A DNA stretch of 32,000 nt from Candidatus Iainarchaeum sp. (GTDB lineage Archaea; Iainarchaeota; Iainarchaeia; Iainarchaeales; JAZDEL01), in assembly GCA_043808785.1 (NCBI GenBank), contig JAZDEL010000001.1, forward strand, positions 30,001 to 62,000, read 5' to 3'. Each line of letters starts with the position of its first letter. The stretch's first letter is position 1. Of the stretch, positions 1,983 to 21,985 are shown piece after piece. A program made the translations under genes and the position numbers. The notes under the pieces were generated by a model. The model did not search any database, was not told the DNA's origin, and saw nothing but the letters and a program-made list of their open reading frames with translations.

Positions 1983-2552
1983 TTACGCAAGGTCCGAGAA
2001 GTCCGCCTTCACGGCCTTCCTCTCCTGCCCTTCCGCCTCGAAGTATTCCCTCGGCGTGCCCATGCCGAACAGTGCGGCAAATACGTTCCCCGGGAACTGC
2101 GCAATCGCGGTGTTGAACAGCATCACGCTGTCGTTGTAGAACTGCCGGGCGTACGCGATCTTGTTCTCCGTTGCCGAGAACTCCTCCTGCAGCTGCGCGA
2201 AGTTCTCCGTGGCCCTGAGCTTCGGATACGCCTCCGCAACCGCAAAGATGGTTTTCAGCGCGCCCGAAAGCATGTTCTCAGCCTTTGCGCTCTCCTTGGG
2301 GCTCTTTGCCTTCATTATCGCGGTCCTCGCCTCGGTTACCTCGGTTAGTACGCGCTTCTCGAACTTCGCGTAGCCCTTGACCGTCTCTATAAGGTTCGGT
2401 ATAAGGTCCGCGCGCCTCTTGAGCTGCACGTCTATCTGCGACCATGCATTGTTGACCTTCATCTTCTTGTCCACAAGGGAGTTGTAGATGAGCACGACCG
2501 CGCCCGCAATCACTATGAGGATTATCAGCACAACCCATTCTATCATATGCAC
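1983..2552 (-). CDS. lemA: LemA family membrane protein
   Basis: Single N-terminal TM helix followed by a LemA-type helical domain (NAWSQIDVQLKRRADLIPNL, YPKLRATENF). Forms the classic lemA-htpX pair. Confidence 0.9.
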   Translation of the reverse strand: MHMIEWVVLIILIVIAGAVVLIYNSLVDKKMKVNNAWSQIDVQLKRRADLIPNLIETVKGYAKFEKRVLTEVTEARTAIMKAKSPKESAKAENMLSGALKTIFAVAEAYPKLRATENFAQLQEEFSATENKIAYARQFYNDSVMLFNTAIAQFPGNVFAALFGMGTPREYFEAEGQERKAVKADFSDLA

Positions 2553-2665
2553 CCTCCTGTCCGGTTACTCCGCCCCTGTATGGTTTCCTTTATGCGTATA
2601 ACTAATGGGGATGTATGCTTTAAAAGGGTTTTTATAGGTGCGCGGCGCCTTAACCCCCCTAACCC

Positions 2666-2688
2666 AAAAAACCCGCCACGGGCGGGTT
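2666..2688 (-). terminator. Hairpin plus T-run directly after a tRNA 3'-end remnant
   Basis: The minus strand reads TCCCCCCTGCA-T-AACCCGCC-CGT-GGCGGGTT-TTTT. This is an 8-bp perfect stem with a 3-nt loop and a T tract, right after an 11-nt copy of the tRNA-Leu 3' end. Confidence 0.5.
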
Positions 2689-2700
2689 ATGCAGGGGGGA
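2687..2700. repeat. att-like direct repeat, left copy (TTATGCAGGGGGGA)
   Basis: Perfect 14-nt identity with 6268-6281, which covers the discriminator base, the 3' acceptor strand and 3 nt of the T stem of tRNA-Leu plus 3 flanking nt. Confidence 0.6.
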
Positions 2701-2766
2701 AACAACACCCCCATGGTTCTGTCTGCCCGCCCTCTTTTAAGGATTTCGGTTGAGGAAGGCGAGGCT

Positions 2767-3963
2767 ATGAGAAAGTATCTGCATGACTACGATAAGATTC
2801 TTGAAGGGGAGACAGCGCGCGTCAATAACGCCCAAATCTCCGAGGCAAACAGGAAAATACTCCTCGAATTCAACGACTACAACCTCGGCCGCGGCCTGAG
2901 CAAGGCGAGGATTTCTAGGAATTCCATCAGCCTCAGGCTGATTGCGAAGCGCCTTGGGAAGGACCTCGCAGGCCTTACGCGCGGCGATGTTGAGCGCCTG
3001 CTCATAATGCTGAAAAAGGAAAACAAGGCTGTTTCCTCCATAGAGACGGACAAGGTTGTTCTCAAGTCCTTTTTCAAGTGGCTCGGCAACGGGGAAACGC
3101 CGGAGTGCGTTAAATGGTACAAATGCAGGGCATCCATCAGCGCAAAGAAGCTGCCCGACGATTTGCTCGAGCAGGAGGAAATAAAGAGGATGCTGAAATT
3201 CGCTTTGAACAAGAGGGACAAGGCGCTTATCGCCATGCTGTGGGACAGCGGTGCAAGGATAGGGGAAATCGGCGGCCTGCAGATAAAAAACGTTGCCTTT
3301 GACAAGTTCGGCTGCAGGATAATTGTTGACGGCAAGACAGGCATGAGGCGCGTAATGCTTGTGGACTCCGCCCCCTACCTGCTTGAATGGATAAATTCGC
3401 ACCCCAATTCGCAGGACCGCGAAGCCCCGCTCTGGGTTGCGATAGAGCAGAATGCAGGGGAGCAGCTGACGCACAGATGCATAATGAAGATGCTGAGGAG
3501 GGTTGCGAAAAGGGCGAAGATAAAGAAGCCCGTCAACCCGCACCAGTTCAGGCATTCCCGCGCAACCTACATGTCGCAGTTCCTCACCGAGGCGCAGATG
3601 AAGGAATACTTCGGCTGGGTGCAGGATTCCAAGATGGCTGCGCGCTATGTGCATCTCTCGGGGAAGCAGGTTGATGATGCGATACTCAGGCTGCACGGCC
3701 TTGTCGATGACGACAAAAAGGAGGACATCCTAAAAAGGGAGCCATGCCCGCGCTGCAATGAAATTAATGACGTGAACAACAAATACTGCCACAAGTGCTG
3801 GCTGCCGCTCACGCAGCAGGCCACTCAGGAAGTTCAGGAAGGGGAGCAGAAAGACCAGGAGGGGATAGTCGCCATTGTGAAGCTGCTGGAGATTGCCGGG
3901 CGCAACCCCGCGCTGATGAAGCAGGCAATAACCGCGATGCAGCAGCCCTCGGCTGTCGGATAG
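2767..3963 (+). CDS. Tyrosine recombinase / phage-type integrase with C-terminal zinc ribbon
   Basis: Catalytic set is present: SGARIGE (Arg), HQFRHSRAT (H-x-x-R), AARYVHLS (Tyr). Extra C-terminal CPRC-X10-CHKC. Start placed at ATG 2767, with a TTTTAAGG box at 2734-2741. The GTG-2638 extension would run across the att repeat. Confidence 0.85.
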   Translation: MRKYLHDYDKILEGETARVNNAQISEANRKILLEFNDYNLGRGLSKARISRNSISLRLIAKRLGKDLAGLTRGDVERLLIMLKKENKAVSSIETDKVVLKSFFKWLGNGETPECVKWYKCRASISAKKLPDDLLEQEEIKRMLKFALNKRDKALIAMLWDSGARIGEIGGLQIKNVAFDKFGCRIIVDGKTGMRRVMLVDSAPYLLEWINSHPNSQDREAPLWVAIEQNAGEQLTHRCIMKMLRRVAKRAKIKKPVNPHQFRHSRATYMSQFLTEAQMKEYFGWVQDSKMAARYVHLSGKQVDDAILRLHGLVDDDKKEDILKREPCPRCNEINDVNNKYCHKCWLPLTQQATQEVQEGEQKDQEGIVAIVKLLEIAGRNPALMKQAITAMQQPSAVG

Positions 3964-4103
3964 GCCGAGTAATCAGCGGCTTTCAATCCGGTTCACCCTA
4001 GCGATGGCCTCAATCGCCATCTGCTCGGTTTCCCCTCAGCCTTCGGGTTAGTTCCTCAATCCTCTCGCTGAGGATGGTGTAATTCCTCATCGGGGAGTTG
4101 CTG

Positions 4104-4292
4104 TTAAACTGCATCCGTGTTGCGTCCCTCATTTTCGCCCCCCTGCCTTAAGTATTTTTCCAGCTGTTCCAGAATGTAAACAAACGCCCTGCCGTGGGTT
4201 TTCTCGAAGTGTTCAAGGTTTTTGTAGTTCATTTGCCGCGCCAGCCCGTAAAGGAAAACGTGCAACGAACCTGCAACAGGTTTATATCGCAA
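4104..4292 (-). CDS. Hypothetical small protein (possible element-encoded regulator)
   Basis: 62-codon ORF (TTG start, internal ATG at 4232) divergent from abiEi across an AT-rich region. No motif recognised. A competing + strand ORF lies at 4194-4394. Confidence 0.25.
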   Translation of the reverse strand: MRYKPVAGSLHVFLYGLARQMNYKNLEHFEKTHGRAFVYILEQLEKYLRQGGENEGRNTDAV

Positions 4293-4312
4293 TTATACTA
4301 TAATGATATAAT

Positions 4313-4409
4313 TGTGATATGGATGCGGCCGAAGGGTGCGGGAGCCGAAAAACCCCGCGATATGTTTATATTACAATTTACTAAAAAGTATTAAACTGTG
4401 ATATGGATG
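4313..4409 (+). repeat. 13-nt direct repeat TGTGATATGGATG (4313-4325 and 4397-4409)
   Basis: The second copy contains the abiEi GTG/ATG start codons. The first copy lies 84 nt upstream and opens only a 27-codon frame. Confidence 0.6.
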
Positions 4410-5039
4410 AAATACAGGATTTTGGTCAGGCGGCTGCTGCTGTGGGAGGGCAGGTATATTTCAGATGCCGAACTGAAAGTGCTTTGCGCAAGGCTGAAAA
4501 TTCCCTACAAAAGCGCGATAATGTATTTGTTTACCAACAAGTACCTGAAGCGGATTGTCCGCGGATTCTTTTACATTCCCTCCGCGGAAGAGCGCAGGCT
4601 GAAAACAGGCGGGCCGAATGTCCTCGAAGCAATCGCAAAAGCGATGGACTATAAGAAAGTGAGGGACTGGTATTTCGGCCTGGAGACCGCGATAAAACTG
4701 AATGCCATAACGCACGAATATTTTACAATAGACTATGTCGTTTCCGACACAATCTTCAGGGCGAAACCGATGGAAATTCTCGGGAGGAGGGTGAAGTTTG
4801 TAAAGCTCAAAAAAGGGCTTTTCGGCTTCGGGACAAAAAGGAACGGCCCCATAATCTACTCCGGCCTGGAGAAAACGCTCCTTGATTTGATACACCTGAA
4901 AAAGCACGGCGGCAAAAAAGACGGCGCGATAAGGGACGATTTAATCGAATGGGCTGAAACAGCCTCAAGAAAAAAACTGAAGGAATATTCGAAGCATTAC
5001 GGCATGTCGGTCAGGAAAGCCGCGGAGGCATTGGAATGA
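4398..5039 (+). CDS. abiEi: AbiEi-family type IV antitoxin / transcriptional regulator
   Basis: N-terminal wHTH ending in LKRIVRGFFYIP. C-terminal domain with YFGLETAIKLNAIT and SGLEKTLLDLIHL. Stop overlaps the abiEii start (ATGA). The start may instead be ATG 4407. Confidence 0.8.
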   Translation: MIWMKYRILVRRLLLWEGRYISDAELKVLCARLKIPYKSAIMYLFTNKYLKRIVRGFFYIPSAEERRLKTGGPNVLEAIAKAMDYKKVRDWYFGLETAIKLNAITHEYFTIDYVVSDTIFRAKPMEILGRRVKFVKLKKGLFGFGTKRNGPIIYSGLEKTLLDLIHLKKHGGKKDGAIRDDLIEWAETASRKKLKEYSKHYGMSVRKAAEALE

Positions 5040-5995
5040 TTCCTTCGGATTTTACCGAAAAAGTCGCGGAAAGCCTCGGAATAAGGGAAACAAAGCTTGT
5101 GGAAAAGGACCTTTACCTGCAGGGGCTTCTCATTGAATTGTCGAAATCGGAATATTTTTCGGAAAATTTTGTTTTCAAGGGCGGCACCTGCCTGACAAAA
5201 GCCTATTTCGGCTATTATCGCTTTTCGGAGGACCTCGACTTTACCTGGCTGCGCCAGGAAGCATTTAAGGGCAAAACCGAGAATCAAATCCGCAGAATGC
5301 TTTCTGAAGAAATTAACAAGATAATGGAACTGCTTGCGGTTACTGCAAAAGAATTGGGCCTTGACTTCAGGGCGGAAAAATCCGATAAGCATTATGTCCA
5401 GCTCGGCGGCAGCAACCGCTTTGCCACATTCAAATTCTGGTACAAGCCCGGCAATCCTGTGGAAAATGAAACATTCATAAAAATCCAGTTAAGTTTTGTG
5501 GACAAAATAATTCATGCACCAAAAAAGCACAAACTTGCGCCGCTCTCCCCGCCGGGCAAAAAGGAACTGGAGCTCGAATACCCCGAATATGCGGCAATGG
5601 CGCTGGAAAGCCCCTCAGTTTACTGCTACGATTTGAAGGAAATCGCTTCCGAGAAAATCCGCGCACTGCTCACGAGAAGGGGCTTCAAGGCAAGGGACAT
5701 AGTCGACCTGTACATGCTTGACAAGAAGGGAATTACAATCAAGTCTGCTAGGGCAATGGCTTCCGAGAAAACCCTGTTCATGCTCCGCTATCTCAAATAT
5801 GCTGAGCACCTGAAGCTCAGGCATTTCGGCGGAAACTTCGCGCTCGGAGAGGAGCAGAACCTGCTGGTAAAACAGCAGGGCAAGGATTTCGGGAAGTTCG
5901 CGGAAAAGGCGCTCGCGGAACTTGACGGACTTGCGGAAGAAATAAGGCGAAAATCGGCAAAGTGGCGCGGCAGGGAAAAGGGAGATGTCATATAA
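5036..5995 (+). CDS. abiEii: AbiEii/AbiGii-family nucleotidyltransferase toxin
   Basis: Hallmark FVFKGGTCLTKAYFGYYRFSEDLDF nucleotidyltransferase motif. 4-nt overlap with the upstream antitoxin gene. Confidence 0.9.
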   Translation: MIPSDFTEKVAESLGIRETKLVEKDLYLQGLLIELSKSEYFSENFVFKGGTCLTKAYFGYYRFSEDLDFTWLRQEAFKGKTENQIRRMLSEEINKIMELLAVTAKELGLDFRAEKSDKHYVQLGGSNRFATFKFWYKPGNPVENETFIKIQLSFVDKIIHAPKKHKLAPLSPPGKKELELEYPEYAAMALESPSVYCYDLKEIASEKIRALLTRRGFKARDIVDLYMLDKKGITIKSARAMASEKTLFMLRYLKYAEHLKLRHFGGNFALGEEQNLLVKQQGKDFGKFAEKALAELDGLAEEIRRKSAKWRGREKGDVI

Positions 5996-6140
5996 GGCGG
6001 TTATATGACAATCAATTTGCCGAAAACAAACAAAAACTTAATTAAGAAGTTTGGGCATTATAGTTGCAACAGAAAAAATCGACTAATCCTTATTTGGAGC
6101 ACGGCACAGAACCTTGGGTTAAATGCAGGGGGAGCATCCC

Positions 6141-6205
6141 AACAGCCTTTTCGGAGCGCGGGATTTCGCGCTGCTCAATCCCGCTTCCAAAAGCCTGGGG
6201 AAAAC
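6141..6205. repeat. Conserved hairpin element, copy 1
   Basis: AACAGCCTTTTCGGAGCGCGGG (22 nt) and CCCGCTTCCAAAAG (14 nt) are identical to 10498-10519 and 10525-10538. The arms are complementary (CCTTTT..GCGGG / CCCGC..AAAAGG). The loop is 17 nt here versus 5 nt in copy 2. Confidence 0.7.
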
Positions 6206-6242
6206 CGCAGTTGTTCGCCCGCAGGCGAACTGTTTCTTTCGC

Positions 6243-6269
6243 AAACCTTTCTTTCCTAAAGAAAGGTTT
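6243..6269 (-). terminator. 12-bp perfect hairpin immediately 3' of tRNA-Leu
   Basis: AAACCTTTCTTT-cct-AAAGAAAGGTTT ends one base from the tRNA 3' end. T-rich arms fit archaeal termination or processing. Confidence 0.45.
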
Positions 6270-6281
6270 ATGCAGGGGGGA
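6268..6281. repeat. att-like direct repeat, right copy (TTATGCAGGGGGGA)
   Basis: Identical to 2687-2700. Overlaps the 3' end of the intact tRNA-Leu. Confidence 0.6.
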
Positions 6282-6354
6282 GGATTCGAACCCCCGAACG
6301 CACTAAGCGACAGCGCCCTGAACGCTGCTGGTTTGGCCGCTTCCATACCCCTGC
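6271..6354 (-). tRNA. tRNA-Leu (anticodon CAG), class II, no encoded CCA
   Basis: Hand-folded. Acceptor GCAGGGG/CCCCTGC with discriminator A. Anticodon arm CAGCG-TTCAGGG-CGCTG. Long variable arm (TCGCTTAGTGCGTTC). T arm GGGGG-TTCGAAT-CCTCC. Confidence 0.9.
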
Positions 6355-6505
6355 ATTGCCCGGTTTGCGCGCCTGGTTTGGGGCTGCAACCCGGCTGCCC
6401 CTCCCTCACGCACGGCGTAACCGCGGTTGCCCGCAATTGCGCCATTTGCCTGATAACTAACAATTACGAAAAGTATTTAAAGTTAGGAAGGGATTAAATA
6501 AACCG

Positions 6506-7813
6506 ATGCGCGGGCGTGTTTTATTTTCGGTTCTGCTGCTTTCCGCGGCACTTTCAATTTTCGCAGGCTCCGCGCTTGCGGACGGAGGCATGGTTCCTGT
6601 CCGCCCTATAGGCGGCGAATACGTGCCAAGGCCGATTTATGAACCAGAGCAGAAAGCAGCAATATTCTACAACCACGGCAAGGAGGACATGATACTCCAG
6701 GCAAGGTATGACGCGGGCGAAGCCACGGAATTCGCCTGGATTATCCCTACTCCTAATTACCCAATCCTCACAAAAGGCGACGAAACCGTTTTCCTCGAGC
6801 TCGAGGATTTCCTGGGGTATGGGCGCGGCTGGATTATGGCGCCCATGGCGCTGGGTGCGGCAAAGAGCGCGGAAAGCGTCACTGTTCACGAGGAGCGCGG
6901 CATAGGCCCTTACACGGTTGCAGTCATCTCCTCCGAAAGCCCGAACGCCATTTCCGAATGGCTGAACAACAACGGCTACGCCTTCCCCGCGGAACACGCC
7001 GATGTCCTCACGCACTACACATCCAAAGGCTGGTATTTCACGGCAATCAGGGTTAATTCCGCGGAACTCGAAACCAACAGAGGCACCGCCGCAGCGCTGA
7101 GCCAGGGCAAGCTCCAGCCTGTAAAGCTCAGCTTCTTCTCGGATGAAATGATTTACCCGCTCAAGATATCCTCGATAAACGCCGACGACGCCTCGAGGAG
7201 AACCAGCATAACCATTTATGCCGTAACCGACCTGCCTGTGGAGGCGGACAACTTCTACGTTTCCAGGGAAAAGCAGATAACCCCGCAGGAAGCCGAGAGT
7301 TACACGGCGCTCTCCAAATATATCCCGCGCACCATGCAGGTTACAAAACTCACAGCAAGCCTGCCGGCATTCAAGATGAACAAGGACGTTTCCCTTGTGC
7401 CGAGCCTTCTGGGAATGGCTCTTGTGGATTCCGCGATTATTTTCGTCGCACTTTTCCTTTCGGTTATTGTGCTTGCCGTGCTTTACATGGAGAAAAAGTT
7501 CATAAAAACAAAAACCCAGGTGGTTCTCTATTCCGCGGGAATCGGGGCAGGCCTGCTTGTGCTCCTAATCCTCATTTCATTCCTGCCGATGCTTTCAGGC
7601 ACGCTTGAAGTGGGGCAGGCAAAGGCGGATTACCTCGCATACAAGGGCGCGATGGACAGCGGCACCGCCGCCTCCTGCAGTGCCATATCCAACGCCGACC
7701 TGCAGCAGCTCTGCGCGGATTCCTTCAGGGTAATGAACACCTGCTCCGGCATTTCAGACAAGCCAAAGCGCGACGCGTGCTACGACAACCTCGGGGTTTA
7801 TTACGGCTCATAG
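6506..7813 (+). CDS. Secreted/membrane protein, possibly DUF2330-like
   Basis: Signal peptide (LLLSAALSIFAGSALADGG), a large extracytoplasmic domain, two C-terminal TM helices and a Cys-rich tail. TATTTAAA box at 6472-6479. The DUF2330 resemblance is from memory only. Confidence 0.75.
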   Translation: MRGRVLFSVLLLSAALSIFAGSALADGGMVPVRPIGGEYVPRPIYEPEQKAAIFYNHGKEDMILQARYDAGEATEFAWIIPTPNYPILTKGDETVFLELEDFLGYGRGWIMAPMALGAAKSAESVTVHEERGIGPYTVAVISSESPNAISEWLNNNGYAFPAEHADVLTHYTSKGWYFTAIRVNSAELETNRGTAAALSQGKLQPVKLSFFSDEMIYPLKISSINADDASRRTSITIYAVTDLPVEADNFYVSREKQITPQEAESYTALSKYIPRTMQVTKLTASLPAFKMNKDVSLVPSLLGMALVDSAIIFVALFLSVIVLAVLYMEKKFIKTKTQVVLYSAGIGAGLLVLLILISFLPMLSGTLEVGQAKADYLAYKGAMDSGTAASCSAISNADLQQLCADSFRVMNTCSGISDKPKRDACYDNLGVYYGS

Positions 7814-9471: not shown

Positions 9472-10401
9472 TCACAGCCCCAGCTGCGAAATCATTCCCT
9501 TTATGCTCTTCACAGCCTCTGAAAACAGCCCCTTCTCTTTCTCATCAAGCTCGAGCTCGACAACCTTCTCCGCCCCCGTTGCCCCGACCCTCACAGGCAC
9601 GCCGATGCAGACATCATTATGCCCGTACTCCCCTTCCAAAAGAACCGAGCACGCGAGTATTTTCTTCTTGTCCTTCAAAACGCACTCCGCCATTTCAGCA
9701 AGCGCCATCGCGGGTGAATAATAAGCCGAACCCTGCTGGAGTAGGGCAACAATTTCAGCGCCCGCGTTCCTCGTGTGCTTAACTGCCTCTTCAATCCTCT
9801 TCTCATGCATTAATTCAGTAATCGGTATCCCCGAAACAGTTGAATAGCGGGGCAAAGGAACCATTGTTTCCCCGTGCGACCCCAGCACCATTGCCTTTAT
9901 GTTCTCGTGGCTAACCCCTAATTCGGAAGCGATAAAACTCGCAAACCTTGCGCTGTCCAGCACGCCCGCCATTCCCAAAACTCTTCCCCTTTCAAAACCG
10001 CTCTTTTTCAGCGCCAAATAAGTCATAACATCCAGCGGGTTTGTTGCGACAATAAGCGCCGCATCTGGTGAATATGCCGCGGCATTTTCAGCAATTCCCC
10101 CCACAATTTTCGCGTTCGCCCCGAGGAGTTCCTCCCTTGTCATTCCCGGCTTCCTTGCCAATCCTGCAGTAACAATAACCAAATCCGAACCCGCGGTTTC
10201 CGCAATATCCGCGCTTCCCCTCACGGAGCAGTTTGCCCCGTCTATGGGCATGCCGTGGGTTAAATCAAGCGCCTTTCCCTTTGCAATGCCCTCCGCAACA
10301 TCAATGAGAACAACATCCCCGAGCCTGCGGTTAAGGGTTATATGTGCAGTTGTGGCGCCCACATTCCCAGCGCCGATAATGCTTATTTTCCTCTGCGCCA
10401 T
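9472..10401 (-). CDS. mdh: Malate dehydrogenase (LDH-like family)
   Basis: GAGNVGATTAH Rossmann motif. GLARKPGMTREEL has Arg at the substrate-discriminating position. LDSARF and SHGETMVP motifs present. Confidence 0.9.
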   Translation of the reverse strand: MAQRKISIIGAGNVGATTAHITLNRRLGDVVLIDVAEGIAKGKALDLTHGMPIDGANCSVRGSADIAETAGSDLVIVTAGLARKPGMTREELLGANAKIVGGIAENAAAYSPDAALIVATNPLDVMTYLALKKSGFERGRVLGMAGVLDSARFASFIASELGVSHENIKAMVLGSHGETMVPLPRYSTVSGIPITELMHEKRIEEAVKHTRNAGAEIVALLQQGSAYYSPAMALAEMAECVLKDKKKILACSVLLEGEYGHNDVCIGVPVRVGATGAEKVVELELDEKEKGLFSEAVKSIKGMISQLGL

Positions 10402-10497
10402 GAAAAATTACGGTGTGGGAAGGGTTAAAAACCGTGCCTTGCGCGGGTTTTGGGGTGGCGTTTTTACGCCAAATTTTTGCCCCCAAACCCGCACCGG

Positions 10498-10550
10498 AAC
10501 AGCCTTTTCGGAGCGCGGGCATAGCCCGCTTCCAAAAGGCTGGCGAAAAC
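10498..10550. repeat. Conserved hairpin element, copy 2
   Basis: Same arms as 6141-6205, with a short CATAG loop. Confidence 0.7.
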
Positions 10551-10552
10551 TT

Positions 10553-10585
10553 GCACCGGAAATCAACCCTCCATCCGTTTAAAAA
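10553..10585 (+). promoter_or_regulatory. Conserved 20-mer + TATA module, copy 1
   Basis: GCACCGGAAATCAACCCTCC, then 5 nt, then TTTAAAAA. Lies upstream of the 10640 ORF. Confidence 0.55.
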
Positions 10586-10639
10586 CCCGCGCACCGAGAT
10601 ATTACTTCTGCCACTAATTTTTTTGGCACAGGTGTAACT

Positions 10640-10879
10640 ATGGCCATCATCGACGTTTCCGCACTAAGGCTTAACCTGCACATAGGCAGCCTTAACATAA
10701 CCCTCGACCTCGGCAACAAAAAAACGCGGAGGAACCTTTCCAAACTTTCCTTTTTCGCGGGGCTCTGCGTGCTGCTTGCGGGGGTTTTGTTTTACAATTC
10801 AATTCCAGCGCCCTTCAGCACGGGAATAATTCTCGCGGGGGCGATGCTTGTCGCGGCCTCCAATTTGCTGTTCGGGTGA
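10640..10879 (+). CDS. Hypothetical small membrane protein
   Basis: 79 aa with two predicted C-terminal TM helices. Positioned downstream of promoter module copy 1. Confidence 0.4.
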   Translation: MAIIDVSALRLNLHIGSLNITLDLGNKKTRRNLSKLSFFAGLCVLLAGVLFYNSIPAPFSTGIILAGAMLVAASNLLFG

Positions 10880-10919
10880 GGGCGAAACCAATAATAACCG
10901 CAAAAGCGTTATTTAACAT

Positions 10920-11588
10920 ATGAGACTTGCCCTCAATCCCGCCAACAAAGAAAGGATGCGCCTTTTGAAAAAACTGGTCAACGAGGCGTGGCAGACAAGG
11001 AGGACTTTCCAAAGCCAAACCCCGAAATCAAGGCATGCCGAAACCGCAAAACGCCTGAATATTTTCAGGGTGCGCAGGGATGCAAAAATGGTTTTGGTCG
11101 CGGAAAATGCCGGCTACGGCACCATTAGGATTGTCGCATTCCCGAAGATGAATGATTGGCGAACTTTCGAACGTGCGGAAAAGATACTTGAGGACAAGGG
11201 GCCCGCCTCCTTAAACCGCGGCGGGATAGGGACAATCGAGCTTGTTAAACGCTCCAAATACCTAATGCTCTCCTACTCCCAAAACCAGTTCATTACGGGG
11301 CACGGTGAAGAGGCGGGGAAGCACACCGTACCGCGCGGCAAGGCGGCACAGTATCTTGGCTGGAGATACCGCGCCTTAAGGGAGGCGGTGCTCATTGCAA
11401 ATGAAAAGGGCGTTCCGTTATACATTCCCGAGCGGGAGTGCGTGAAACCGAATTTTGTGGAGGATTTGGATAAGGCGTGCTTGGAAATTGGGCTTCATGA
11501 GGTTAAAAAGCCACGTCCCGCTTATGCAGACGGAAGAAAAACGGTAGTGTTTGTCGGTGACGACCCGAGCCGGAGATATTTTTCCTGA
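10920..11588 (+). CDS. Hypothetical protein
   Basis: 222-aa ORF with no overlapping alternative of comparable length. No motif recognised. Confidence 0.6.
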   Translation: MRLALNPANKERMRLLKKLVNEAWQTRRTFQSQTPKSRHAETAKRLNIFRVRRDAKMVLVAENAGYGTIRIVAFPKMNDWRTFERAEKILEDKGPASLNRGGIGTIELVKRSKYLMLSYSQNQFITGHGEEAGKHTVPRGKAAQYLGWRYRALREAVLIANEKGVPLYIPERECVKPNFVEDLDKACLEIGLHEVKKPRPAYADGRKTVVFVGDDPSRRYFS

Positions 11589-11690
11589 AGCCGCTTTGGG
11601 CATAACAAACAAACGTCTCCGCGGAATAAAAATTTAACCCGCGTTGGTTCGGTTGGCTTGCGGCGAACTCTGCGTCGGTTCGGCGGGTTC

Positions 11691-11723
11691 GCACCGGAAA
11701 TCAACCCTCCGCAGGTTTTTAAA
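11691..11723 (+). promoter_or_regulatory. Conserved 20-mer + TATA module, copy 2
   Basis: The 20-mer is identical to copy 1, then 5 nt, then TTTTTAAA. The ATG of the next gene lies 33 nt after the box. Confidence 0.55.
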
Positions 11724-11755
11724 CGCCGCGCGGCATGAATTAATAGTGGGCGGAT

Positions 11756-12343
11756 ATGCTTGGAAAAAAGCCGAAAGGCGTGAAGCCGACCGAGGAAAGG
11801 ATAAAGTCCATACAGGCAAGGGCAGGCAAAATAAGCAAAATCCTGCATAGCACGAAAGAGGTCGAGGCAAGGATTAATGCCGCAATCGCCCGCTCCTGCA
11901 CGCTTGTATTGGGCGACCATAAAAACCTTAACCTGCTGAAGAAGGTTTCGGAGAGCATGGAAAAGGCGCGCATACCGAGCTTCTGGGCGAAAATCGACGG
12001 GAGCAACGTAAACGACATCCTCAAGTCCAAACTATTCATGAAGGACTCGGACTTTATCGTGATGATTGACGGCAGGGGCGCGGGAACAGTGGGAGAGTCT
12101 CACTACGCAATCTCAAACGAGAAGATTGCGTCGAAACTGCACCTCTTTGTGCACTCCTCGAACGAAAAGGACGTCTGGGACTACAAAAAGCACTATGTAT
12201 TTTTCCCGCGCTTCGGATTCTGGGATTCGGAAAAGTCGCTCCTTGAATCCGCGGCGAAGGTTGCGGAGAAGGAAATCCGCCGCCTTGCATACCTCGAAAT
12301 AGTGAGGGAAACGCAGTGCTGGGGCTGCCCGAAATATGCTTAG
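11756..12343 (+). CDS. Hypothetical protein with a possible nucleoside 2-deoxyribosyltransferase-like motif
   Basis: 195-aa ORF. SDFIVMIDGRGAGTVGESHYAI resembles the D-x-GT-x-x-E-x-x-x-A signature of NDT-like Rossmann proteins (weak, by eye). Confidence 0.6.
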   Translation: MLGKKPKGVKPTEERIKSIQARAGKISKILHSTKEVEARINAAIARSCTLVLGDHKNLNLLKKVSESMEKARIPSFWAKIDGSNVNDILKSKLFMKDSDFIVMIDGRGAGTVGESHYAISNEKIASKLHLFVHSSNEKDVWDYKKHYVFFPRFGFWDSEKSLLESAAKVAEKEIRRLAYLEIVRETQCWGCPKYA

Positions 12344-12374
12344 GGGATTGTACGGGAAAAAGTTAAATATATGA

Positions 12375-12653
12375 ATGGCTGAATATAGGTGTATGGGCAT
12401 GGAAAACCTGAACAACTGGCTTGAGTTTGTTTCCGACAGCGGCGTTTTGAGCGTCCTGCTCTACCTCCGCGAATACAACCCTTCGGTAAGGATTAAGGAT
12501 ATGGGCGAAAACCTCGGCATAGGCGCAGGGAAAATCAGGGATATAGTTTCACAATTGGGCAGGGAACAGATGGTGCAGGTAAGCGGCGGAGGGTATGTGC
12601 GCCTTACCGCACGCGGCAATGTTGCTGTTGAAAGGCTGATGGAGATAGGCTGA
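12375..12653 (+). CDS. Small winged-helix DNA-binding protein
   Basis: LSVLLYLREY..VRIKDMGENLGIGAGKIRDIVSQLGREQMVQV..YVRLTARG fits a helix-turn-helix plus wing pattern. The start may be Met 12393 or 12399, given the TAAATATA box at 12362-12369. Confidence 0.6.
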   Translation: MAEYRCMGMENLNNWLEFVSDSGVLSVLLYLREYNPSVRIKDMGENLGIGAGKIRDIVSQLGREQMVQVSGGGYVRLTARGNVAVERLMEIG

Positions 12654-12843
12654 ATAACCTTGTTTGCCTTTTTGGGTTCGCTTAATTTTGTACCTTCAAT
12701 CCTGCGCCTATTCCTTTCCCAACCTCTTAATTATCCCCGCCGCCACGGCAACCTCTATCAGGCTCAAAGGCACGGCAAAAACAAGCGTCCCGGCGCCAGG
12801 AGGCAATAATAACCTTTATAAAAAACGCCAGCGTTATAGTGTT

Positions 12844-13236
12844 ATGGTGCAATACCCTTCAGTGGAGAAAATAACCGAGATGAATGCGCTTGCCCTCAGT
12901 ATCATCTATGCCAAAAAGGCTGATGAGGCAAAGGTACTGAGCAGGGCAAAAATAACCGAAGTTATCGGGGATTGCGAGGGTTTTAACGGGGACATTTATG
13001 ATAAGGCAGTTGTATTGCTCAAGGGCATAGTCCAGAAGCATCCCTTTGCCAGCGGGAACAGGCGCACTGCATTCCTCGCAATGAAATATTTTTTGCTTGC
13101 CAACAAGGCAAGGCTTGGGATTGAAGATAACCCCGCGAATGCGAGAATCCTGCAGGGCGTAAGGGAAAATTATTATTCAGATGCGGAACTTAAGGAGTGG
13201 GTAAAAAATGGCAAAATCAGGCAATTCTCAAGATAA
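12844..13236 (+). CDS. doc: Doc (death-on-curing) / Fic-fold toxin
   Basis: HPFASGNRRTAF Fido motif in a ~130-aa protein. CTTTATAAAAA box ends about 20 nt upstream of ATG 12844. The 60-codon upstream extension from 12664 has no coding character. Confidence 0.8.
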   Translation: MVQYPSVEKITEMNALALSIIYAKKADEAKVLSRAKITEVIGDCEGFNGDIYDKAVVLLKGIVQKHPFASGNRRTAFLAMKYFLLANKARLGIEDNPANARILQGVRENYYSDAELKEWVKNGKIRQFSR

Positions 13237-13330
13237 GTTAAGGTGCAAAATAGTCTCGGAAGAGTTGGCGGAATTCAACAAGCTCGTGCGCGGGCACAGG
13301 AAACTGCTGGTTGCAATAGGCGAGCTTTAA
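13208..13330 (+). CDS. Candidate 40-aa ORF overlapping the doc 3' end
   Basis: ATG..TAA encodes MAKSGNSQDKLRCKIVSEELAEFNKLVRGHRKLLVAIGEL, which looks helical. Overlaps doc by 29 nt. Too short for the ORF track. No motif recognised. Confidence 0.25.
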   Translation: MAKSGNSQDKLRCKIVSEELAEFNKLVRGHRKLLVAIGEL

Positions 13331-13359
13331 CGCGCCCCGCGCCTGCGTCCGCCTCGTTT

Positions 13360-13377
13360 GCGCGGTTCGCGCGCGGT
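13360..13377 (+). repeat. GC hairpin 18-mer GCGCGGTTCGCGCGCGGT, copy 1
   Basis: Perfect repeat of 14405-14422. A near-identical inverted copy (one extra C) lies at 26082-26100. Confidence 0.7.
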
Positions 13378-13479
13378 CGGTTGCATTTTCCCCAATCCAC
13401 CTTACTGCGCGGCAAAACTCGCTTTGCCACATTTTTTAAGCAAATTGTTGCATTTATATGCCTGTTAGGGATGGTCTGG

Positions 13480-14382
13480 ATGAATGAGAAAGAGAAAATA
13501 ACAAAGCTGCATTCGGCGGCTAGGAAATACTGCTTCGACGGGCTGGAGCGCTTGCGTGTCAAAGGCAAACCAGGTGATGACGGTGCAAGCCTGCTTAGGG
13601 ATATGTTGTCTGACATGCTCAAGAATCTCTTTTGTGCCATTCTATTTCAGATTGAGAAGTTTGACCCTGATGAATTTGGCAAGCCCGGGCTTAATTCGCT
13701 GGAGGTCGCAAGGGCCAAATTCATTGAAGCGGGAAAAAAAGCGCAGTTTGCCAGCAACAGCTTAATTGCGGAAGGGGTGCTTAAAAGGCTTGACAATTAT
13801 GTTTGCGATGCAAAGGATACGCCGATAGCGAAGGCAAGTAATGAAATAATGTCGTTCTGCGATTATGTCGCCAACATTAGCGAAAATGATTTGGCCTGTG
13901 TAGAGGACGTGCCTTACCGGCACGTTTTGCCGGAAGCGATTGCCGATAAACAGTTCATGCGAATGGTTAAGAAATGGGATATGACGATTGAGAAATATCA
14001 TCCTGAGTATAGTGAACTTTTTTGGTGGCCGCTCGCCGAAACAAAATGCCGTGACTTAATTGCCTTGAATTCCGCCCCATTTGAGAAACGGGGGCTTGCA
14101 GGGATCAGGGATATTCTGAGAAAGCACGGCGTCAAAAGAGTGCTGGTGCTTAACTACGGCGATTATTCATATGAAGCAGACCTTTCCATTTTTGACCCCC
14201 GGGCGCAATATTATCCCCAATGGCGCGTGTTTTGCACATCTGAAAAAATGGACTGGGTAATTTACCTTTCCCATGAATCCTCAATCACATTCGGTGGCAA
14301 ATGGCTGGTAGCCAAGGTAAAGAAGGCATATCCTGAATGGAAGTCGCTGGTTTATAGCAGGCTGTTCGAAAATGTCGACTGA
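13480..14382 (+). CDS. Hypothetical protein
   Basis: Start placed at ATG 13480 (or 13471), just downstream of the TTTATAT box at 13453-13459. The ORF-track extension to 13243 crosses the repeat and terminator region. No motif recognised. Confidence 0.65.
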   Translation: MNEKEKITKLHSAARKYCFDGLERLRVKGKPGDDGASLLRDMLSDMLKNLFCAILFQIEKFDPDEFGKPGLNSLEVARAKFIEAGKKAQFASNSLIAEGVLKRLDNYVCDAKDTPIAKASNEIMSFCDYVANISENDLACVEDVPYRHVLPEAIADKQFMRMVKKWDMTIEKYHPEYSELFWWPLAETKCRDLIALNSAPFEKRGLAGIRDILRKHGVKRVLVLNYGDYSYEADLSIFDPRAQYYPQWRVFCTSEKMDWVIYLSHESSITFGGKWLVAKVKKAYPEWKSLVYSRLFENVD

Positions 14383-14402
14383 GCCCGCCTGCCGCCCCAC
14401 GC

Positions 14403-14426
14403 CCGCGCGGTTCGCGCGCGGTTTTT
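14403..14426 (+). terminator. GC hairpin followed by T5
   Basis: CCGCGCG-gttcg-CGCGCGG-TTTTT, 20 nt after the stop codon at 14380-14382. Confidence 0.55.
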
Positions 14427-14604
14427 GGTTTGGGGGGTTTGCTGGGTTTGCCGCCCCAACCAAACTGATGCGAACCTGGCGCGGTGCGGGGGATTGCGAA
14501 ACGTGGCGAGGGGGCAGGCGTCCCCCCAGTATACAGCTAACCCCTAATGCGCCTTCCGGAAGATATTAAAACAGGTAATACATACTATTTGCAGATTCCA
14601 TGGA

Positions 14605-15933
14605 GTGAAACGGATGAACGGAACGCCCTTAACTCCAGAAAAAATCGAGGAATTTTACGGCGCAATGGAATTGCGAAAAGAGCTCTCGTTTAGCGAATTA
14701 TCCCCCTCCAAATCCAACTGGGGAACCCACTCATACCACTCATACCCTGCGAAGTTCGCGCCGCCTCTAGTAAAGTACCTTGTTGAAAACTACACCCGGT
14801 CAAAAGAAATCATATGGGATCCCTTCTGCGGCTCGGGCACAGTAAATGTTGAAGCACTTCGCAACAACAGAAACAGCATCGGCACAGACATAAACCCGAC
14901 AGCAATTTTAATATCGCGGACAAAGACGACCCCACTTAACCCGAAAAAACTGAAGAAGTACGGGGCAAGCCTTCTCAATAAAATTGAAAAACCAGGGCAC
15001 GGGGACGCAAAATATTTCACCAGGCAAGGAATATTAAACGGCAACCTCCCCGAACTCAGGCGGTGGTATGAAGAAGATGCATTGATGGATCTTGCAAAAA
15101 TTTTATTGGCAACTAAAAAAGTGGCTGCTCCCGAACCATATAAGCAATTTGCATTATGTTGCTTCTCATCCATATTAAAAAAAACTTCATATTGGCTAAA
15201 GACAAGTGTCAAGTCGCAATTTGATTACTCGCAAACTCCAGCAAAGCCAATTCGGTCTTTTGAGAACAGTTTTTGCCGCATGGAAAAAATGAATGAGGAT
15301 TTTTATAACGAATCAAAAAACAAAAAAACTTTTGCGAAGCTATACCGCCACGATGCCACAAAAGAAATGAAAAAATTCAGGAACAAAATTGACCACATAG
15401 TCACCAGCCCCCCATATTTAGTTTCTTATGAATATGGGGATATTTTTAGGCTCTCAACATATCTCCTTACTGGCTACGAGGGCCCCAATTACCTCAAATT
15501 CAAGCGGCAGTTTATCGGGACACGGCTTGAAAAAGAAGTCAAAAAAGAAGACTCAACACGCAAAATATTTAATGAGGCGGCAGGCATAGGTTCAGGCGAA
15601 TCCGAAGGAAAGGCGAAAAGTGCATTAAACTATTACCAAGAAATGGCTAACTTTTTCCAAAATGCAAAACTCCACTTAAGGAAAAAAGGCAAGCTTACGC
15701 TGGTCGTCGGGGATGCAGTAATAAATGGGCAAAAAGTGCCAAACGCATACATCCTCTCCAAAATAGCCGAAACTAAAGGGTTTGCAATAGAGGAAAAATT
15801 CAAGCGGGAAATAGGCAGGAAAAACCTGCCTAGCTTTAGGGATAAAACAACTGGCAAATTTGTGCACAAAAGGGACCCTAATGGGGTTTTGGCACATCCT
15901 GAGGAGTATATATTGGCGTTTAAGGTTGCATAA
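14605..15933 (+). CDS. N4-cytosine or N6-adenine DNA methyltransferase (motif I before motif IV)
   Basis: SYPAKFAPPLVKYLV..IWDPFCGSGT (AdoMet motif I) near residue 75 and IVTSPPY (catalytic motif IV) near residue 268, with a ~190-aa putative target-recognition region between them. The start may be ATG 14614. Confidence 0.85.
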   Translation: MKRMNGTPLTPEKIEEFYGAMELRKELSFSELSPSKSNWGTHSYHSYPAKFAPPLVKYLVENYTRSKEIIWDPFCGSGTVNVEALRNNRNSIGTDINPTAILISRTKTTPLNPKKLKKYGASLLNKIEKPGHGDAKYFTRQGILNGNLPELRRWYEEDALMDLAKILLATKKVAAPEPYKQFALCCFSSILKKTSYWLKTSVKSQFDYSQTPAKPIRSFENSFCRMEKMNEDFYNESKNKKTFAKLYRHDATKEMKKFRNKIDHIVTSPPYLVSYEYGDIFRLSTYLLTGYEGPNYLKFKRQFIGTRLEKEVKKEDSTRKIFNEAAGIGSGESEGKAKSALNYYQEMANFFQNAKLHLRKKGKLTLVVGDAVINGQKVPNAYILSKIAETKGFAIEEKFKREIGRKNLPSFRDKTTGKFVHKRDPNGVLAHPEEYILAFKVA

Positions 15934-15968
15934 TGGCATAATAATGTTTCCCAACAAATAGCATAAGC

Positions 15969-18533: not shown

Positions 18534-18551
18534 ATACGTGGGCGCTAAAAT

Positions 18552-19100
18552 ATGGACTCATTAAAACTTAGAAGTATTCTCGAAAATGGTGGCACTAAGG
18601 ATAACCGTCTTATTGCGGGGATTGAAAAATTTATAAATGATGAAAAGTTTCTTTTGGCCAATGACCTCAATGAGAGAACAATGTCTGCCAAACTGGCGCA
18701 ATACCTGCAAAAAGAATACTGCTCGGATTATTTTGTGGATTGCGAATACAACCGCATGTTGGACAAAAATGTAAACTATGCGGATAGTGCAAAACGACTG
18801 CCAGGTAATTATGATAAGACTGCGCCCACAACCGACTTAAAGGGGAAAACTGTCTACCCCGACATTATCATCCATAAGGAACGAAAAAGGAATAATGGCA
18901 ATTATATTGTTATTGAGGTAAAAAAGGAAGTGAATAACGAAGATAAAACACTTGATTTTTCAAAATTAAAAAAATTCACTAAGATATACTCGAGCCCTTA
19001 CTCATTAAATTACGAATGGGGCATTTATTTGGAATTTAATAAAGAAGAGTTGTCTGATGTCAGATTGTTCAAGAATGGAAAGCAAATAAATCCGGTCTGA
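18552..19100 (+). CDS. Small stand-alone PD-(D/E)xK nuclease-fold protein
   Basis: VDCEYNR .. YPDIIIH (18858-18863) .. VIEVKK (18915-18923). Lies 18 nt downstream of the GHKL gene. Confidence 0.65.
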   Translation: MDSLKLRSILENGGTKDNRLIAGIEKFINDEKFLLANDLNERTMSAKLAQYLQKEYCSDYFVDCEYNRMLDKNVNYADSAKRLPGNYDKTAPTTDLKGKTVYPDIIIHKERKRNNGNYIVIEVKKEVNNEDKTLDFSKLKKFTKIYSSPYSLNYEWGIYLEFNKEELSDVRLFKNGKQINPV

Positions 19101-19110
19101 AAAATTAGCG

Positions 19111-19254
19111 CTATTTCCTCAGCACCAATTCAATCTGCTTATTTTTCGGCTCCAGCTCCAGTTCATCGCCATCCTTCAGCCCAAGTAGGGTCAGCGTGTC
19201 CTTCGGGAGCAGTATGCCGAGCGAGTTCCCTATTTTCCTTATCTTGACCTTCAT
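19111..19254 (-). CDS. AbrB/MazE/SpoVT-type swapped-hairpin DNA-binding protein (47 aa)
   Basis: MKVKIRKIGNSLGILLPKDTLTLLGLKDGDELELEPKNKQIELVLRK matches the canonical SpoVT-AbrB pattern. Not in the ORF track because it is under 60 aa. Confidence 0.75.
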   Translation of the reverse strand: MKVKIRKIGNSLGILLPKDTLTLLGLKDGDELELEPKNKQIELVLRK

Positions 19255-19322
19255 GTTATAACTGTTGTAATAACTACCTTTAAAAGGTTTTCGTGTTATT
19301 ACATAAGTAATAACTTAAAAGG
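19255..19322. promoter_or_regulatory. Operator-like GTAATAAC repeats with palindromic TATA box
   Basis: GTTATAAC (19255-19262), GTAATAACTACCTTTAAAAGG (19267-19287), inverted GTTATTAC (19295-19302), GTAATAACTTAAAAGG (19307-19322). CCTTTAAAAGG lies about 25-30 nt from the abrB-like ATG. Confidence 0.55.
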
Positions 19323-19324
19323 TC

Positions 19325-19498
19325 ATGGTTAAAATGGACCCCTCCGTCTCCCGTTTCATCTTCGGCACAATCTGCTGGCTCCCCCTCGGCTTCTGCGTGG
19401 CGCTGGCGAGATGGGGGCGTATGGAGGAGGCTTATGCACTTGCGAAGTACAGCGCGGTGTTTTTGGCGGGGGCCAGCATAGCGGGATGGCTTGGTTAA
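19325..19498 (+). CDS. Candidate 57-aa membrane protein
   Basis: MVKMDPSVSRFIFGTICWLPLGFCVALARWGRMEEAYALAKYSAVFLAGASIAGWLG. Its last 12 codons recur at 22013-22048 with only synonymous or conservative changes, which argues for translation. Confidence 0.5.
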   Translation: MVKMDPSVSRFIFGTICWLPLGFCVALARWGRMEEAYALAKYSAVFLAGASIAGWLG

Positions 19499-19505
19499 AA
19501 AGCTT

Positions 19506-19538
19506 GCACCGGAAATGCACCCTCGGGAGATTTTTAAA
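19506..19538 (+). promoter_or_regulatory. Conserved 20-mer + TATA module, copy 3
   Basis: GCACCGGAAATGCACCCTCG (17/20 identical to copies 1 and 2), then 5 nt, then TTTTTAAA. Upstream of dcm. Confidence 0.5.
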
Positions 19539-19608
19539 TGGAACCAAATATTTTATTTTTATCGGACAGCCTCTGCCTCGATGTAAAAAATCCTTTGGGG
19601 GTGTCTGA

Positions 19609-20826: not shown

Positions 20827-20840
20827 AATGCATAATATCG

Positions 20841-21554: not shown

Positions 21555-21946
21555 CAACCCATAATTTTTCCCATTGAACGATTGAAATCTTTCCTCAAAT
21601 TGTGTTCCCAAATGACAATTACCCTGAACCCAAGTTTTCTTAAAGTGCTCCTGACGGCTTTATCCCGCCTTAAATTTGCCATTATCTTCCTTTTCCAAAA
21701 GGCCCTGTTCGATTTGGGCGCCCTGTAGCATTTTGGGCAGGCGTGCCAGAAGCAGCCGTGAAGAAGGATGGCGGCATTCGTGCCGTGAATCAGGATGTCG
21801 GCGCCGGGCGCAGCTTTCGGGTGCATGGTGTGGCGCACCCTGTGCCCCTTGAGGAAATTGTGGGCTCTTCGCTCGGGCGATGTCCATTTGTAACGGATTT
21901 TGGACATTATTTTGCTTCGTTTCGCCTTTGAGAACTTGTCAACCAC
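21554..21946 (-). CDS. vsr: Very-short-patch repair endonuclease
   Basis: SKIMSKIR..TSPE, DILI..AILLHGCFWHACP, SNRAFWKRKIMANLRRD and VIVIWEH are all Vsr signatures. Confidence 0.9.
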   Translation of the reverse strand: MVDKFSKAKRSKIMSKIRYKWTSPERRAHNFLKGHRVRHTMHPKAAPGADILIHGTNAAILLHGCFWHACPKCYRAPKSNRAFWKRKIMANLRRDKAVRSTLRKLGFRVIVIWEHNLRKDFNRSMGKIMG

Positions 21947-21985
21947 GATAGTATTTCAGGGGAAAACAATAAAAGCAGTGTTTTT

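Follow-up and report, generated by a model that had tools for sequence, protein, structure and literature searches.

We analyzed a 32,000-nt stretch of DNA from Candidatus Iainarchaeum sp. (assembly GCA_043808785.1, contig JAZDEL010000001.1, positions 30,001 to 62,000; here referred to as the window) and focused on a segment of about 3.6 kb that lies between two copies of a 14-nt repeat, beside a tRNA-Leu(CAG) gene. This locus is very probably a small cryptic integrative element in a Candidatus Diapherotrites (DPANN) chromosome, and it probably arose by integrase-mediated insertion at the 3' end of the tRNA-Leu gene. Between the repeats lie a tyrosine integrase gene (int), two conserved tiny genes, one of them frameshifted, and the gene pair abiEi/abiEii. 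The features of the locus are collected in Table 1.

An earlier note on this DNA had described a perfect 14-nt repeat, the right copy being the 3' terminus of an intact tRNA-Leu(CAG) and the left copy being followed on the minus strand by an 8-bp hairpin and a T-run, and all three observations held. The repeat, TTATGCAGGGGGGA on the + strand, occurs exactly at 2687–2700 (cL) and 6268–6281 (cR), with no third exact copy in the window. From base composition, ~1.5e-4 further exact copies would be expected on each strand of the 32 kb. When up to two mismatches were allowed, 0.25 matches were expected, and at least three matches were found in 0/100 dinucleotide-preserving shuffles. The third match in the window has 2 mismatches and lies at 23490, on the opposite strand, within a coding sequence (CDS). 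It was rejected as an extra attachment (att) core and regarded as a chance match, and the 10-mer ATGCAGGGGG at 25147, also inside a CDS, was rejected in the same way.

The tRNA-Leu(CAG) gene, called by both ARAGORN and Rfam, is intact and does not encode CCA. The 14-mer spans tRNA positions 63–73, that is, the end of the T-stem, the 3' acceptor strand and the discriminator A, together with 3 nt of trailer (TAA). The Rfam scan of the whole window at the gathering threshold missed this gene and a scan of 2400–6600 recovered it, so that Rfam speed filters can lose a bona fide tRNA. On the minus strand, cL is directly followed by AACCCGCCCGTGGCGGGTT and TTTTGG. The hairpin formed there contains 8 pairs, of which 6 are G-C, and its centroid structure has an energy of -9.1 kcal/mol (z=-2.2). 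It is reasonable to regard this hairpin as the native terminator of the tRNA, moved 3.6 kb from its gene, because within the element there is no minus-strand gene upstream that it could terminate. In an empty site, the terminator sequence CCCGCCCGTGGCGGG is thus expected behind tRNA-Leu(CAG). The intact tRNA is now directly followed by an 11-bp polypyrimidine/polypurine hairpin, which is present as a single copy in the window and is homologous to a hairpin in a related element described below. By topology this hairpin must derive from the element, since it is the outermost displaced copy that retains the native flank, and it plausibly serves the tRNA as a replacement terminator. The opposite assignment, in which the hairpin at 6245–6267 would be the native terminator (a similar hairpin stands behind tRNA-Leu in locus L037), was rejected on topology.

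The integrase had been called intact in the earlier note, and indeed its gene is a single open reading frame (ORF) with a PF00589 domain and all catalytic residues present. The protein is identical to NCBI MFH1224211.1, which is encoded on a 214 kb contig of a Candidatus Diapherotrites (DPANN) metagenome-assembled genome (MAG). Look-ups by exact protein sequence gave no record for LemA, DUF2330, the integrase and P0001. It matches the phrog_1 integrases (E=2e-30), and its nearest solved structure is Pyrococcus abyssi XerA (4A8E, E=7e-19). In an alignment of 34 sequences including the window integrase, R164, K190, H259, R262, W284 and Y294 are invariant, as are four cysteines; the C-terminus holds a CxxC...CxxC zinc ribbon, with a weak double-zinc-ribbon match in Pfam. 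The start codon of int is 66 nt from the end of cL. The arm between them comprises a degenerate mimic of the tRNA T-arm (2701–2714), a conserved motif CCATGGTTCTG (2711–2721), a TATA-like CTTTTAAGG (2734–2742) and a conserved leader TCGGTTGAGGAAGG, and this leader was found at 7/7 of the relatives' loci. The int frame also stays open for 43 codons 5' of the ATG (2638–2766); it thereby reaches back as far as a GTG (2638) and passes through the left att copy. This extension is probably meaningless, because all relatives start at the ATG after the conserved leader.

We then placed the integrase among its relatives. At E<=1e-10 it has 1750 homologues, for the most part in DPANN MAGs and metagenomes, and genomic context was fetched for seven of them (loci L003, L004, L005-7, L008, L009, L056 and L057). 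The insertion in tRNA-Leu that the earlier note had proposed is supported by these loci. In four independent ones int lies ~60 nt 3' of a tRNA-Leu gene on the same strand: L004 (64% identity; tRNA-Leu(TAG) with an intron, missed by default ARAGORN), L005-7 (65%; tRNA-Leu(GAG)), L008 (63%; tRNA-Leu(TAG); ORFan cargo) and L057 (66%; tRNA-Leu(TAG); a DpnII restriction-modification pair). All four share one order, namely the tRNA end ...GCA, 7 nt, CATGGTTCGAWGC, a TTTAAA box, TCGGTTGAGGAAGG and the ATG (alignment A1). The more distant L009 (54% identity, ORFan cargo) is located at a tRNA-Thr gene. Directly upstream of its int there is an imperfect copy, 27 nt long, of the tRNA-Thr 3' end; 7.7 kb downstream stands an exact copy of 14 nt with a T-run behind it, and ~750 nt lie between the intact tRNA and the int-proximal copy. 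Therefore the 14-nt repeat, the T-run after the distal copy and the spacer between tRNA and element all recur in the family. L003 (72% identity, ORFan cargo) lies between ksgA and a PYNP gene, with no tRNA. The L003 element (9930–14960) has inverted termini of ~25–50 nt (CGCATAG...GTTCG.TGCG) and a flanking direct repeat of only ~7 nt (CACCCCG), and it may be a secondary-site integration. In the DNA available for L004, L005 and L008, no far-end repeat of 10 nt or more of the tRNA 3' end was found, and inverted termini were not significant in L004, L005, L008, L009 and L057. More distant family members, at 29–42% identity, stand at the edge of 13–90 kb predicted proviruses in IMG/VR and come without upstream DNA. 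A single integrase sequence as query gave no match in IMG/VR, a scan there with the leader motif gave two matches, both chance ones in CDS, and the terminus block and the repeated hairpin of the window (Table 1) gave zero. Our literature search found no treatment of this integrase clade.

The closest relative, L056 (73% identity), has no tRNA; its contig is linear, 4.2 kb long and without overlapping ends. Directly upstream of its int lie an 11-bp polypyrimidine/polypurine hairpin, TGTGCAGCC... and the arm, so that hairpin, core, arm and int are contiguous. We joined positions 5996–6281 of the window to 2701–2769 through the 14-mer and aligned the product to L056. The rebuilt junction aligned unbroken through the hairpin (6245–6267), core, arm, promoter and start codon, with a score of 76 vs 21 +/- 3.2 (maximum 37) for shuffles. 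This alignment is the nearest equivalent obtained to the junction of an excised circle, and it shows both ends of the window element to be adjacent in the related element L056.

These results also bear on the simplest alternative, in which there is no mobile element at all and the locus consists of a host Xer dimer-resolution enzyme, an ordinary chromosomal abiE and a 14-mer that is due to chance or is a tRNA fragment. The best NCBIfam and PDB matches of the integrase are XerA, XerC and XerD, its GC content is host-like and an empty site was not found in the searches made, all of which would fit. This explanation is nevertheless largely refuted and extremely improbable. The integrase scores 110.7 bits with the XerA equivalog model NF040815 (NCBIfam) vs a cut-off of 220, and with 398 aa and the extra C-terminal zinc ribbon it departs from chromosomal XerA, which has about 280 aa and no extra domains; judged from its sequence, the catalytic domain is Xer-like and the protein is not XerA. 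Moreover, the 14-mer is far beyond chance and lies exactly at the tRNA end and the terminator, the region upstream of int is conserved with relatives that are located at tRNA genes and have variable cargo, either ORFans or defence genes, next to them, and the rebuilt junction matches L056. The integrase is not of the SSV-type “suicidal” kind, in which attP lies inside int and int is split, since int is intact here and both repeats are outside it. Nor is it pTN3-like as defined in PMC8371274, the repeat covering the last 11 nt of the tRNA.

The extent of the integrative element is less clear at its right side. The earlier note had given it bounds of 3.6 kb; the outer repeats stand, and the right end may be an inner, degenerate third core (c', 6121–6134), which the note does not list. 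On the tRNA strand c' reads TGCA-TTTAACC-CAAGGTTC, which is the canonical family junction (TGCA-N7-CWWGGTTC), and this pattern occurs once in the window, where 0.04 occurrences are expected. Compared with cL and cR, c' has one G fewer and a different flank. Over the 68 nt at 6025–6092, blastn gives 87% identity with the right terminus of the element in L003. The homology, to L003 14845–14940, continues through an inverted copy of the arm with an alignment score of 103, and the L003 terminus abuts chromosomal DNA. This inverted arm (6118–6077) is an imperfect copy of int-upstream 2710–2751, with a score of 32 vs 18 +/- 3.4 for shuffles, or a z of only ~2.4 in an enlarged search space. The 133-nt spacer from c' to the tRNA contains a repeated hairpin, a + strand terminator-like hairpin and the L056-like hairpin.

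From these features we slightly favour, as the most economical reading, a tandem composition, with a 3.45 kb element (2687–6134) followed by a 133-nt remnant (6135–6267) of a second, L056-like element. A sub-variant of the same integration reading is a single 3.6 kb element bounded by the two 14-mers, with the inner core as an extra integrase-binding site or a relic. We hold it to be somewhat short of an even chance. It is favoured by the 14/14 identity of cL and cR, compared with a c' that is one G short and differently flanked, and by L056, where the counterparts of the hairpin beside cR and of the arm and int beside cL are contiguous. It accounts poorly for the c' region, which has the exact canonical junction geometry and shares homology with what is a true terminus of the L003 element, and for the spacer, which holds a repeat that is also found in host intergenic DNA (10491–10550). 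In addition, arrangements of tRNA, spacer and partial copy are also present in L009, L020 and L022. The tandem and the single-unit compositions share the structure and differ in history and in the active cores, and the choice between them is close to even.

Two of these loci are metagenomic DPANN tRNA-Leu loci in which a partial copy of the 3' end lies 70–85 nt downstream of the tRNA (L020, 1259–1350; L022, 1270–1340). Such copies may represent mini-scars, or else miniature elements that use the same att site. L026 has a flank like that of L020, and the insert is absent there.

Several points weigh against an integrative element, or against its exact description, and are considered together here. 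The predicted junction sequences are GAATCCTCCCCCCTGCATAACCCGCCCGTGGCGGG for the empty site, AAGAAAGGTTTATGCAGGGGGGAAACAACACC for a 3.6 kb circle and CCTTGGGTTAAATGCAGGGGGGAAACAACACC for a 3.45 kb circle. The empty-site 26-mer had zero exact matches in JGI metagenomes, and the circular-junction 32-mer had zero exact matches in IMG/VR. The same 25-nt tRNA 3' end was found at 32 metagenomic tRNA-Leu loci, none of which comes from this species. The contig of the sole close host relative recovered (HtpX 83%) starts inside lemA, and the junction is missing from it. Both GC and GC3 (the GC content at third codon positions) of int are host-like, and composition does not mark the integrase part as foreign. 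The inverted-repeat termini alone are only marginally significant (z ~2.4–4), and the active core pair may be either cL/c' or cL/cR. Finally, the polarity differs: int is tRNA-distal and convergent with the tRNA in the window, while in the four tRNA-Leu relatives it stands beside the tRNA on the same strand. The integrase, LemA and HtpX were found in none of the same 32 tRNA-Leu loci, and a scan of the genome collection with the DUF2330 flank gave distant bacterial matches only. L056 and L058, which carries the closest relative of the host htpX (83%), both come from run SRR22387960.

As a consequence of this polarity, the core is antisense to int in the window. The spacing from TGCA to the arm is 17 nt in the window and in L056 vs 7 nt in the other relatives. 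The layout with int at the tRNA-distal end is not unprecedented, because the PYG1 island of Pyrococcus yayanosii shows the same order, namely attL, int, ..., abiEi, abiEii, one small ORF and tRNA-Gln (PMC5126054). One arrangement that would explain the differing position of int is a mirror-symmetric attP, in which two inverted arms (~40–55 nt) surround a short core with the palindrome TGCA at its centre, and one of the arms also acts as the int promoter; the tRNA 3' end would then be entered in either polarity, or the interior would be flipped by the integrase. Such an attP would also explain the canonical core-N7-arm junction that has no integrase behind it (6109–6134) and the insertion of L003 outside a tRNA with a repeat of ~7 nt. 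We consider this arrangement improbable.

We next turn to the cargo of the integrative element. The earlier note had listed an integrase, an AbiE pair and one small ORF. The first two are well supported, and the count of small ORFs has to be revised to two conserved ones, of which one is frameshifted. AbiEi and AbiEii were identified by PADLOC with E-values of 3.7e-48 and 1.9e-61. The start of abiEii overlaps the stop of abiEi in a 4-nt ATGA (5036–5039), and abiEi has an alternative GTG start at 4398. AbiEi has no match in Pfam. The sole PDB match of AbiEii is AbiGII (E=9e-4). In the alignment with AbiGII 9HLO, FKGGTCL...SEDLDF of AbiEii falls on the GG...DxD motif and EKIRALLTRRGFKARDIVDLYML on the K...R..RD..D motif. 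The inverted repeats 5' of abiEi may represent AbiEi operators, or a divergent promoter common with sORF-A. Within the control region there are three ATATYRCAATT motifs, two of them forming a 14-nt inverted repeat, and a 5' segment of abiEi is duplicated ~85 nt upstream (GTGATATGGATG at 4313 and 4398). The GC content of abiE is ~48% vs 53–57% for int and the flanking genes. The AbiE cargo is therefore likely an acquisition separate from the integrase part, and the latter, with its host-like composition, is likely long resident or derived from a similar host.

The two tiny genes form a module (3971–4233) with 81% DNA identity over 263 nt to L056 3005–3266, and the module is also present in L008 and L005. 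The sORF-A sequence MNYKNLEHFEKTHGRAFVYILEQLEKYL matches MHYENLEHFEKVHGRAFVYILEQLEKYLG of L056, with homologous stretches in L008 and L005. In sORF-B the 1-nt indel is column 266 of alignment A3; the out-of-frame codons downstream are still conserved, and the frameshift is either a recent mutation or an assembly error. No family match was found for sORF-A and sORF-B in Pfam, PHROGs and NCBIfam. As the earlier note had said, no replication, capsid or transfer genes are detectable between the repeats.

The relatives carry 5–8 kb or more of other cargo, which is different at each locus; in L003, L008 and L009 there are 4–7 kb of ORFans. L056 carries a TrbC-like pilin gene, and the cargo ORFs of L056 and L003 have no match in Pfam or PHROGs. 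Since the relatives carry other or larger cargo, the window copy looks reduced, which fits the earlier suggestion that the element is stripped down or decayed from a larger one. A stronger form of that suggestion is that the locus is now a decayed, immobile stump of a larger plasmid- or virus-derived island. This is compatible with our reading on origin, differs from it on current activity, and seems to us rather unlikely. It would agree with the frameshift in sORF-B, with the larger cargo of the relatives, which includes a pilin-like gene of a type IV secretion system (L056) and a restriction-modification pair (L057), with the distant members beside 13–90 kb predicted proviruses, with the remnant of a second element and with the host-like GC of int, which suggests long residence. 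On the other hand, the integrase has an undamaged ORF and a full set of catalytic residues, no difference has arisen between the outer repeats, both abiE genes are intact and still overlap at stop and start, and a mini-island of att and int is mobile in Pyrococcus.

Taken as an integrative element, the locus could have formed as follows. The Xer-like integrase would recombine an element-borne attP with the last ~11–14 nt of the tRNA-Leu(CAG) gene. The exchange would leave the tRNA intact, with the element-supplied hairpin now behind its 3' end, and would push the 14-nt duplicate and the native hairpin/T-run terminator ~3.6 kb away, beside lemA. The integrase gene would then stand at the tRNA-distal end and read inward from the conserved arm and promoter. 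By analogy with AbiE systems that have been characterised, the AbiEi/AbiEii pair may act through post-segregational killing and so stabilize the island, or it may abort infection by viruses. Since identical 14-mers still bracket the composite, all 3.6 kb of it might in principle be mobilised together. The repeats, the intact tRNA, the terminator, the identity of the genes, the intact catalytic residues and, for the family, the association with tRNA genes and the att geometry are observed, and from them we infer the recombination event, the current mobility and the role of AbiE.

The AbiE pairs of lactococci and Streptococcus agalactiae are reportedly two-gene operons with overlapping stop and start codons, in which AbiEi is the regulator and antitoxin and a DUF1814 nucleotidyltransferase is the toxin. 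The pair described here is alike in gene order, stop/start overlap, nucleotidyltransferase motifs and inverted repeats upstream of abiEi. It differs in its archaeal host and its very divergent sequences.

The closest known design is that of the Thermococcales islands PYG1 and TBG1. They share with the window element the insertion at a tRNA 3' terminus, the direct repeats, a XerC/D-type integrase by the tRNA-distal repeat, and a tRNA-proximal abiEi-abiEii pair. PYG1 is much larger (21.4 kb, 23 ORFs), with 43-bp repeats, a tRNA-Gln target and a euryarchaeal hyperthermophile as host, whereas the window element has ~3.5 kb, 14-nt repeats, tRNA-Leu(CAG) and a DPANN host; the likeness is one of layout. 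For PYG1, excision and integration of a mini-island of att and int have been shown experimentally (Li et al. 2016, PMC5126054). Moreover, cryptic integrated elements (CIE) of Thaumarchaeota, which range from 2.6 kb upward and of which several may stand in tandem at a single att site (Krupovic et al. 2019, PMC6563490), are likewise integrase-bearing, mostly located in tRNA genes and without a recognisable replication, capsid or transfer module. They differ in host (Thaumarchaeota) and in having other integrase families, and AbiE is absent from PMC6563490.

The 3' end of a tRNA gene is a common target of archaeal tyrosine integrases, and integration restores a complete tRNA (Badel et al. 2021, PMC8371274). 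The att site can be as short as the acceptor end, as in SNJ2, and related integrases switch among tRNAs of the same class (PMC8371274). The family described here resembles these classical integrases, with switching among Leu isoacceptors and, in the more distant L009, to Thr. The DPANN clade of ~400 aa with a zinc ribbon is missing from PMC8371274, whose text contains neither “DPANN” nor “zinc”.

The locus offers a worked example for this clade, with the 3' end of tRNA-Leu as target, an att site of ~14 nt, a conserved arm and promoter and a conserved pair of tiny genes. The defence cargo is interchangeable in the clade, with AbiE here and a DpnII restriction-modification pair in L057, and the example illustrates a way for ultra-small genomes to acquire and retain defence or addiction modules on minimal vehicles. 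What is new is the poorly studied host group and an integrase clade undescribed in the literature we found. The element design itself is already known, and current understanding is unchanged, as the same design has been shown experimentally in PYG1. To our knowledge, mobile elements of DPANN archaea have barely been described.

Table 1. Features of the putative integrative element at tRNA-Leu(CAG) (positions in the window).
Feature	Position	Strand	Evidence and remarks
Putative native tRNA terminator, hairpin and T-run	2660–2688	-	Terminator-like site 2688–2670, then TTTTGG; just upstream of lemA
cL, distal att copy	2687–2700	-	Duplicates the last 11 nt of tRNA-Leu plus TAA; 14/14 match to 6268–6281
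Integrase-proximal arm	2701–2766	+	Alignment A1 with five relatives
Tyrosine integrase (int), 398 aa	2767–3963	+	PF00589 E=2.2e-20, profile positions 3–169 of 172
sORF-B, 40 aa	4010–4132	-	52 aa in L056; shortened here by an extra G near 4035
sORF-A	4104–4232 (ATG, 42 aa) or 4104–4292 (TTG, 62 aa)	-	Conserved tiny gene
abiEi control region	4279–4409	+	Inverted repeats 4284–4297/4307–4320 and 4310–4320/4368–4378
abiEi, predicted antitoxin/transcriptional regulator, type IV toxin-antitoxin system	4407–5039	+	PADLOC AbiEi PDLC02273 E=3.7e-48, profile positions 12–202 of 205
abiEii, predicted nucleotidyltransferase toxin	5036–5995	+	PF08843 E=3.3e-26; PADLOC AbiEii E=1.9e-61
int-distal terminus	6025–6118	-	Block 6025–6092 and inverted arm copy 6118–6077
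c', degenerate third att core AAATGCAGGGGGAG	6121–6134	-	10-mer ATGCAGGGGG at 6123–6132; alignments A1 and A4
Repeated hairpin-forming intergenic element	6134–6207	+	Second copy 10491–10550; repeat families D9 and D12
Hairpin GTTCGCC-CGCA-GGCGAAC with T-rich tail, probably the abiE operon terminator	6213–6230	+	Terminator-like site; fold -8.2 kcal/mol, z=-3.3
Polypyrimidine/polypurine hairpin, 11 bp	6245–6267	-	Directly 3' of the intact tRNA; fold -11.1 kcal/mol, z=-5.0
cR, att copy forming the 3' end of intact tRNA-Leu	6268–6281	-	14/14 match to cL
tRNA-Leu(CAG), integration target	6271–6354	-	ARAGORN; Rfam RF00005 41.8 bits (cut-off 29), full-length model

The copy of a repeated hairpin that the earlier note had placed between the repeats is present. 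The repeat is ~60–75 nt long with the core AACAGCCTTTTCGGAGCGCGGG...CCCGCTTCCAAAAGSCTGG and has two copies in the window (Table 1); a 17-mer of it has 2 copies, where 0.14 are expected. A separate 34-nt motif, GCACCGGAAATCAACCCTCC...TTTTTAAA, has three copies (10553–10586, 11691–11724 and 19506–19539). Neither the 60–75-nt repeat nor the 34-nt motif has a match in Rfam, IMG/VR or the fetched loci of the relatives.

The host genes flanking the element are htpX and lemA on the left and DUF2330, ham1, fic and mdh on the right. The DUF2330 protein, encoded next to the tRNA (6506–7813), has next-best matches at ~37% identity, and the few named organisms among them are bacterial (Atribacteria, Parcubacteria). 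The lack of a close homologue and the bacterial origin of the few named matches suggest that this gene was horizontally acquired. Further to the right, the region 12664–24919 has a low GC content (35–48% vs ~53% for core genes) and is dense in defence-type genes, including a second Fic-domain protein, an N6/N4 DNA methylase, two C-5 cytosine methylases and two HATPase_c_3 (MORC/Hsp90-like) ATPases. This region resembles a distinct and larger defence region of foreign origin. Within it, ARAGORN reported a “tRNA-???” with a 2-nt anticodon at 21385–21480 on the minus strand, where Rfam gave nothing at E<=0.01, and this call is probably a false positive.

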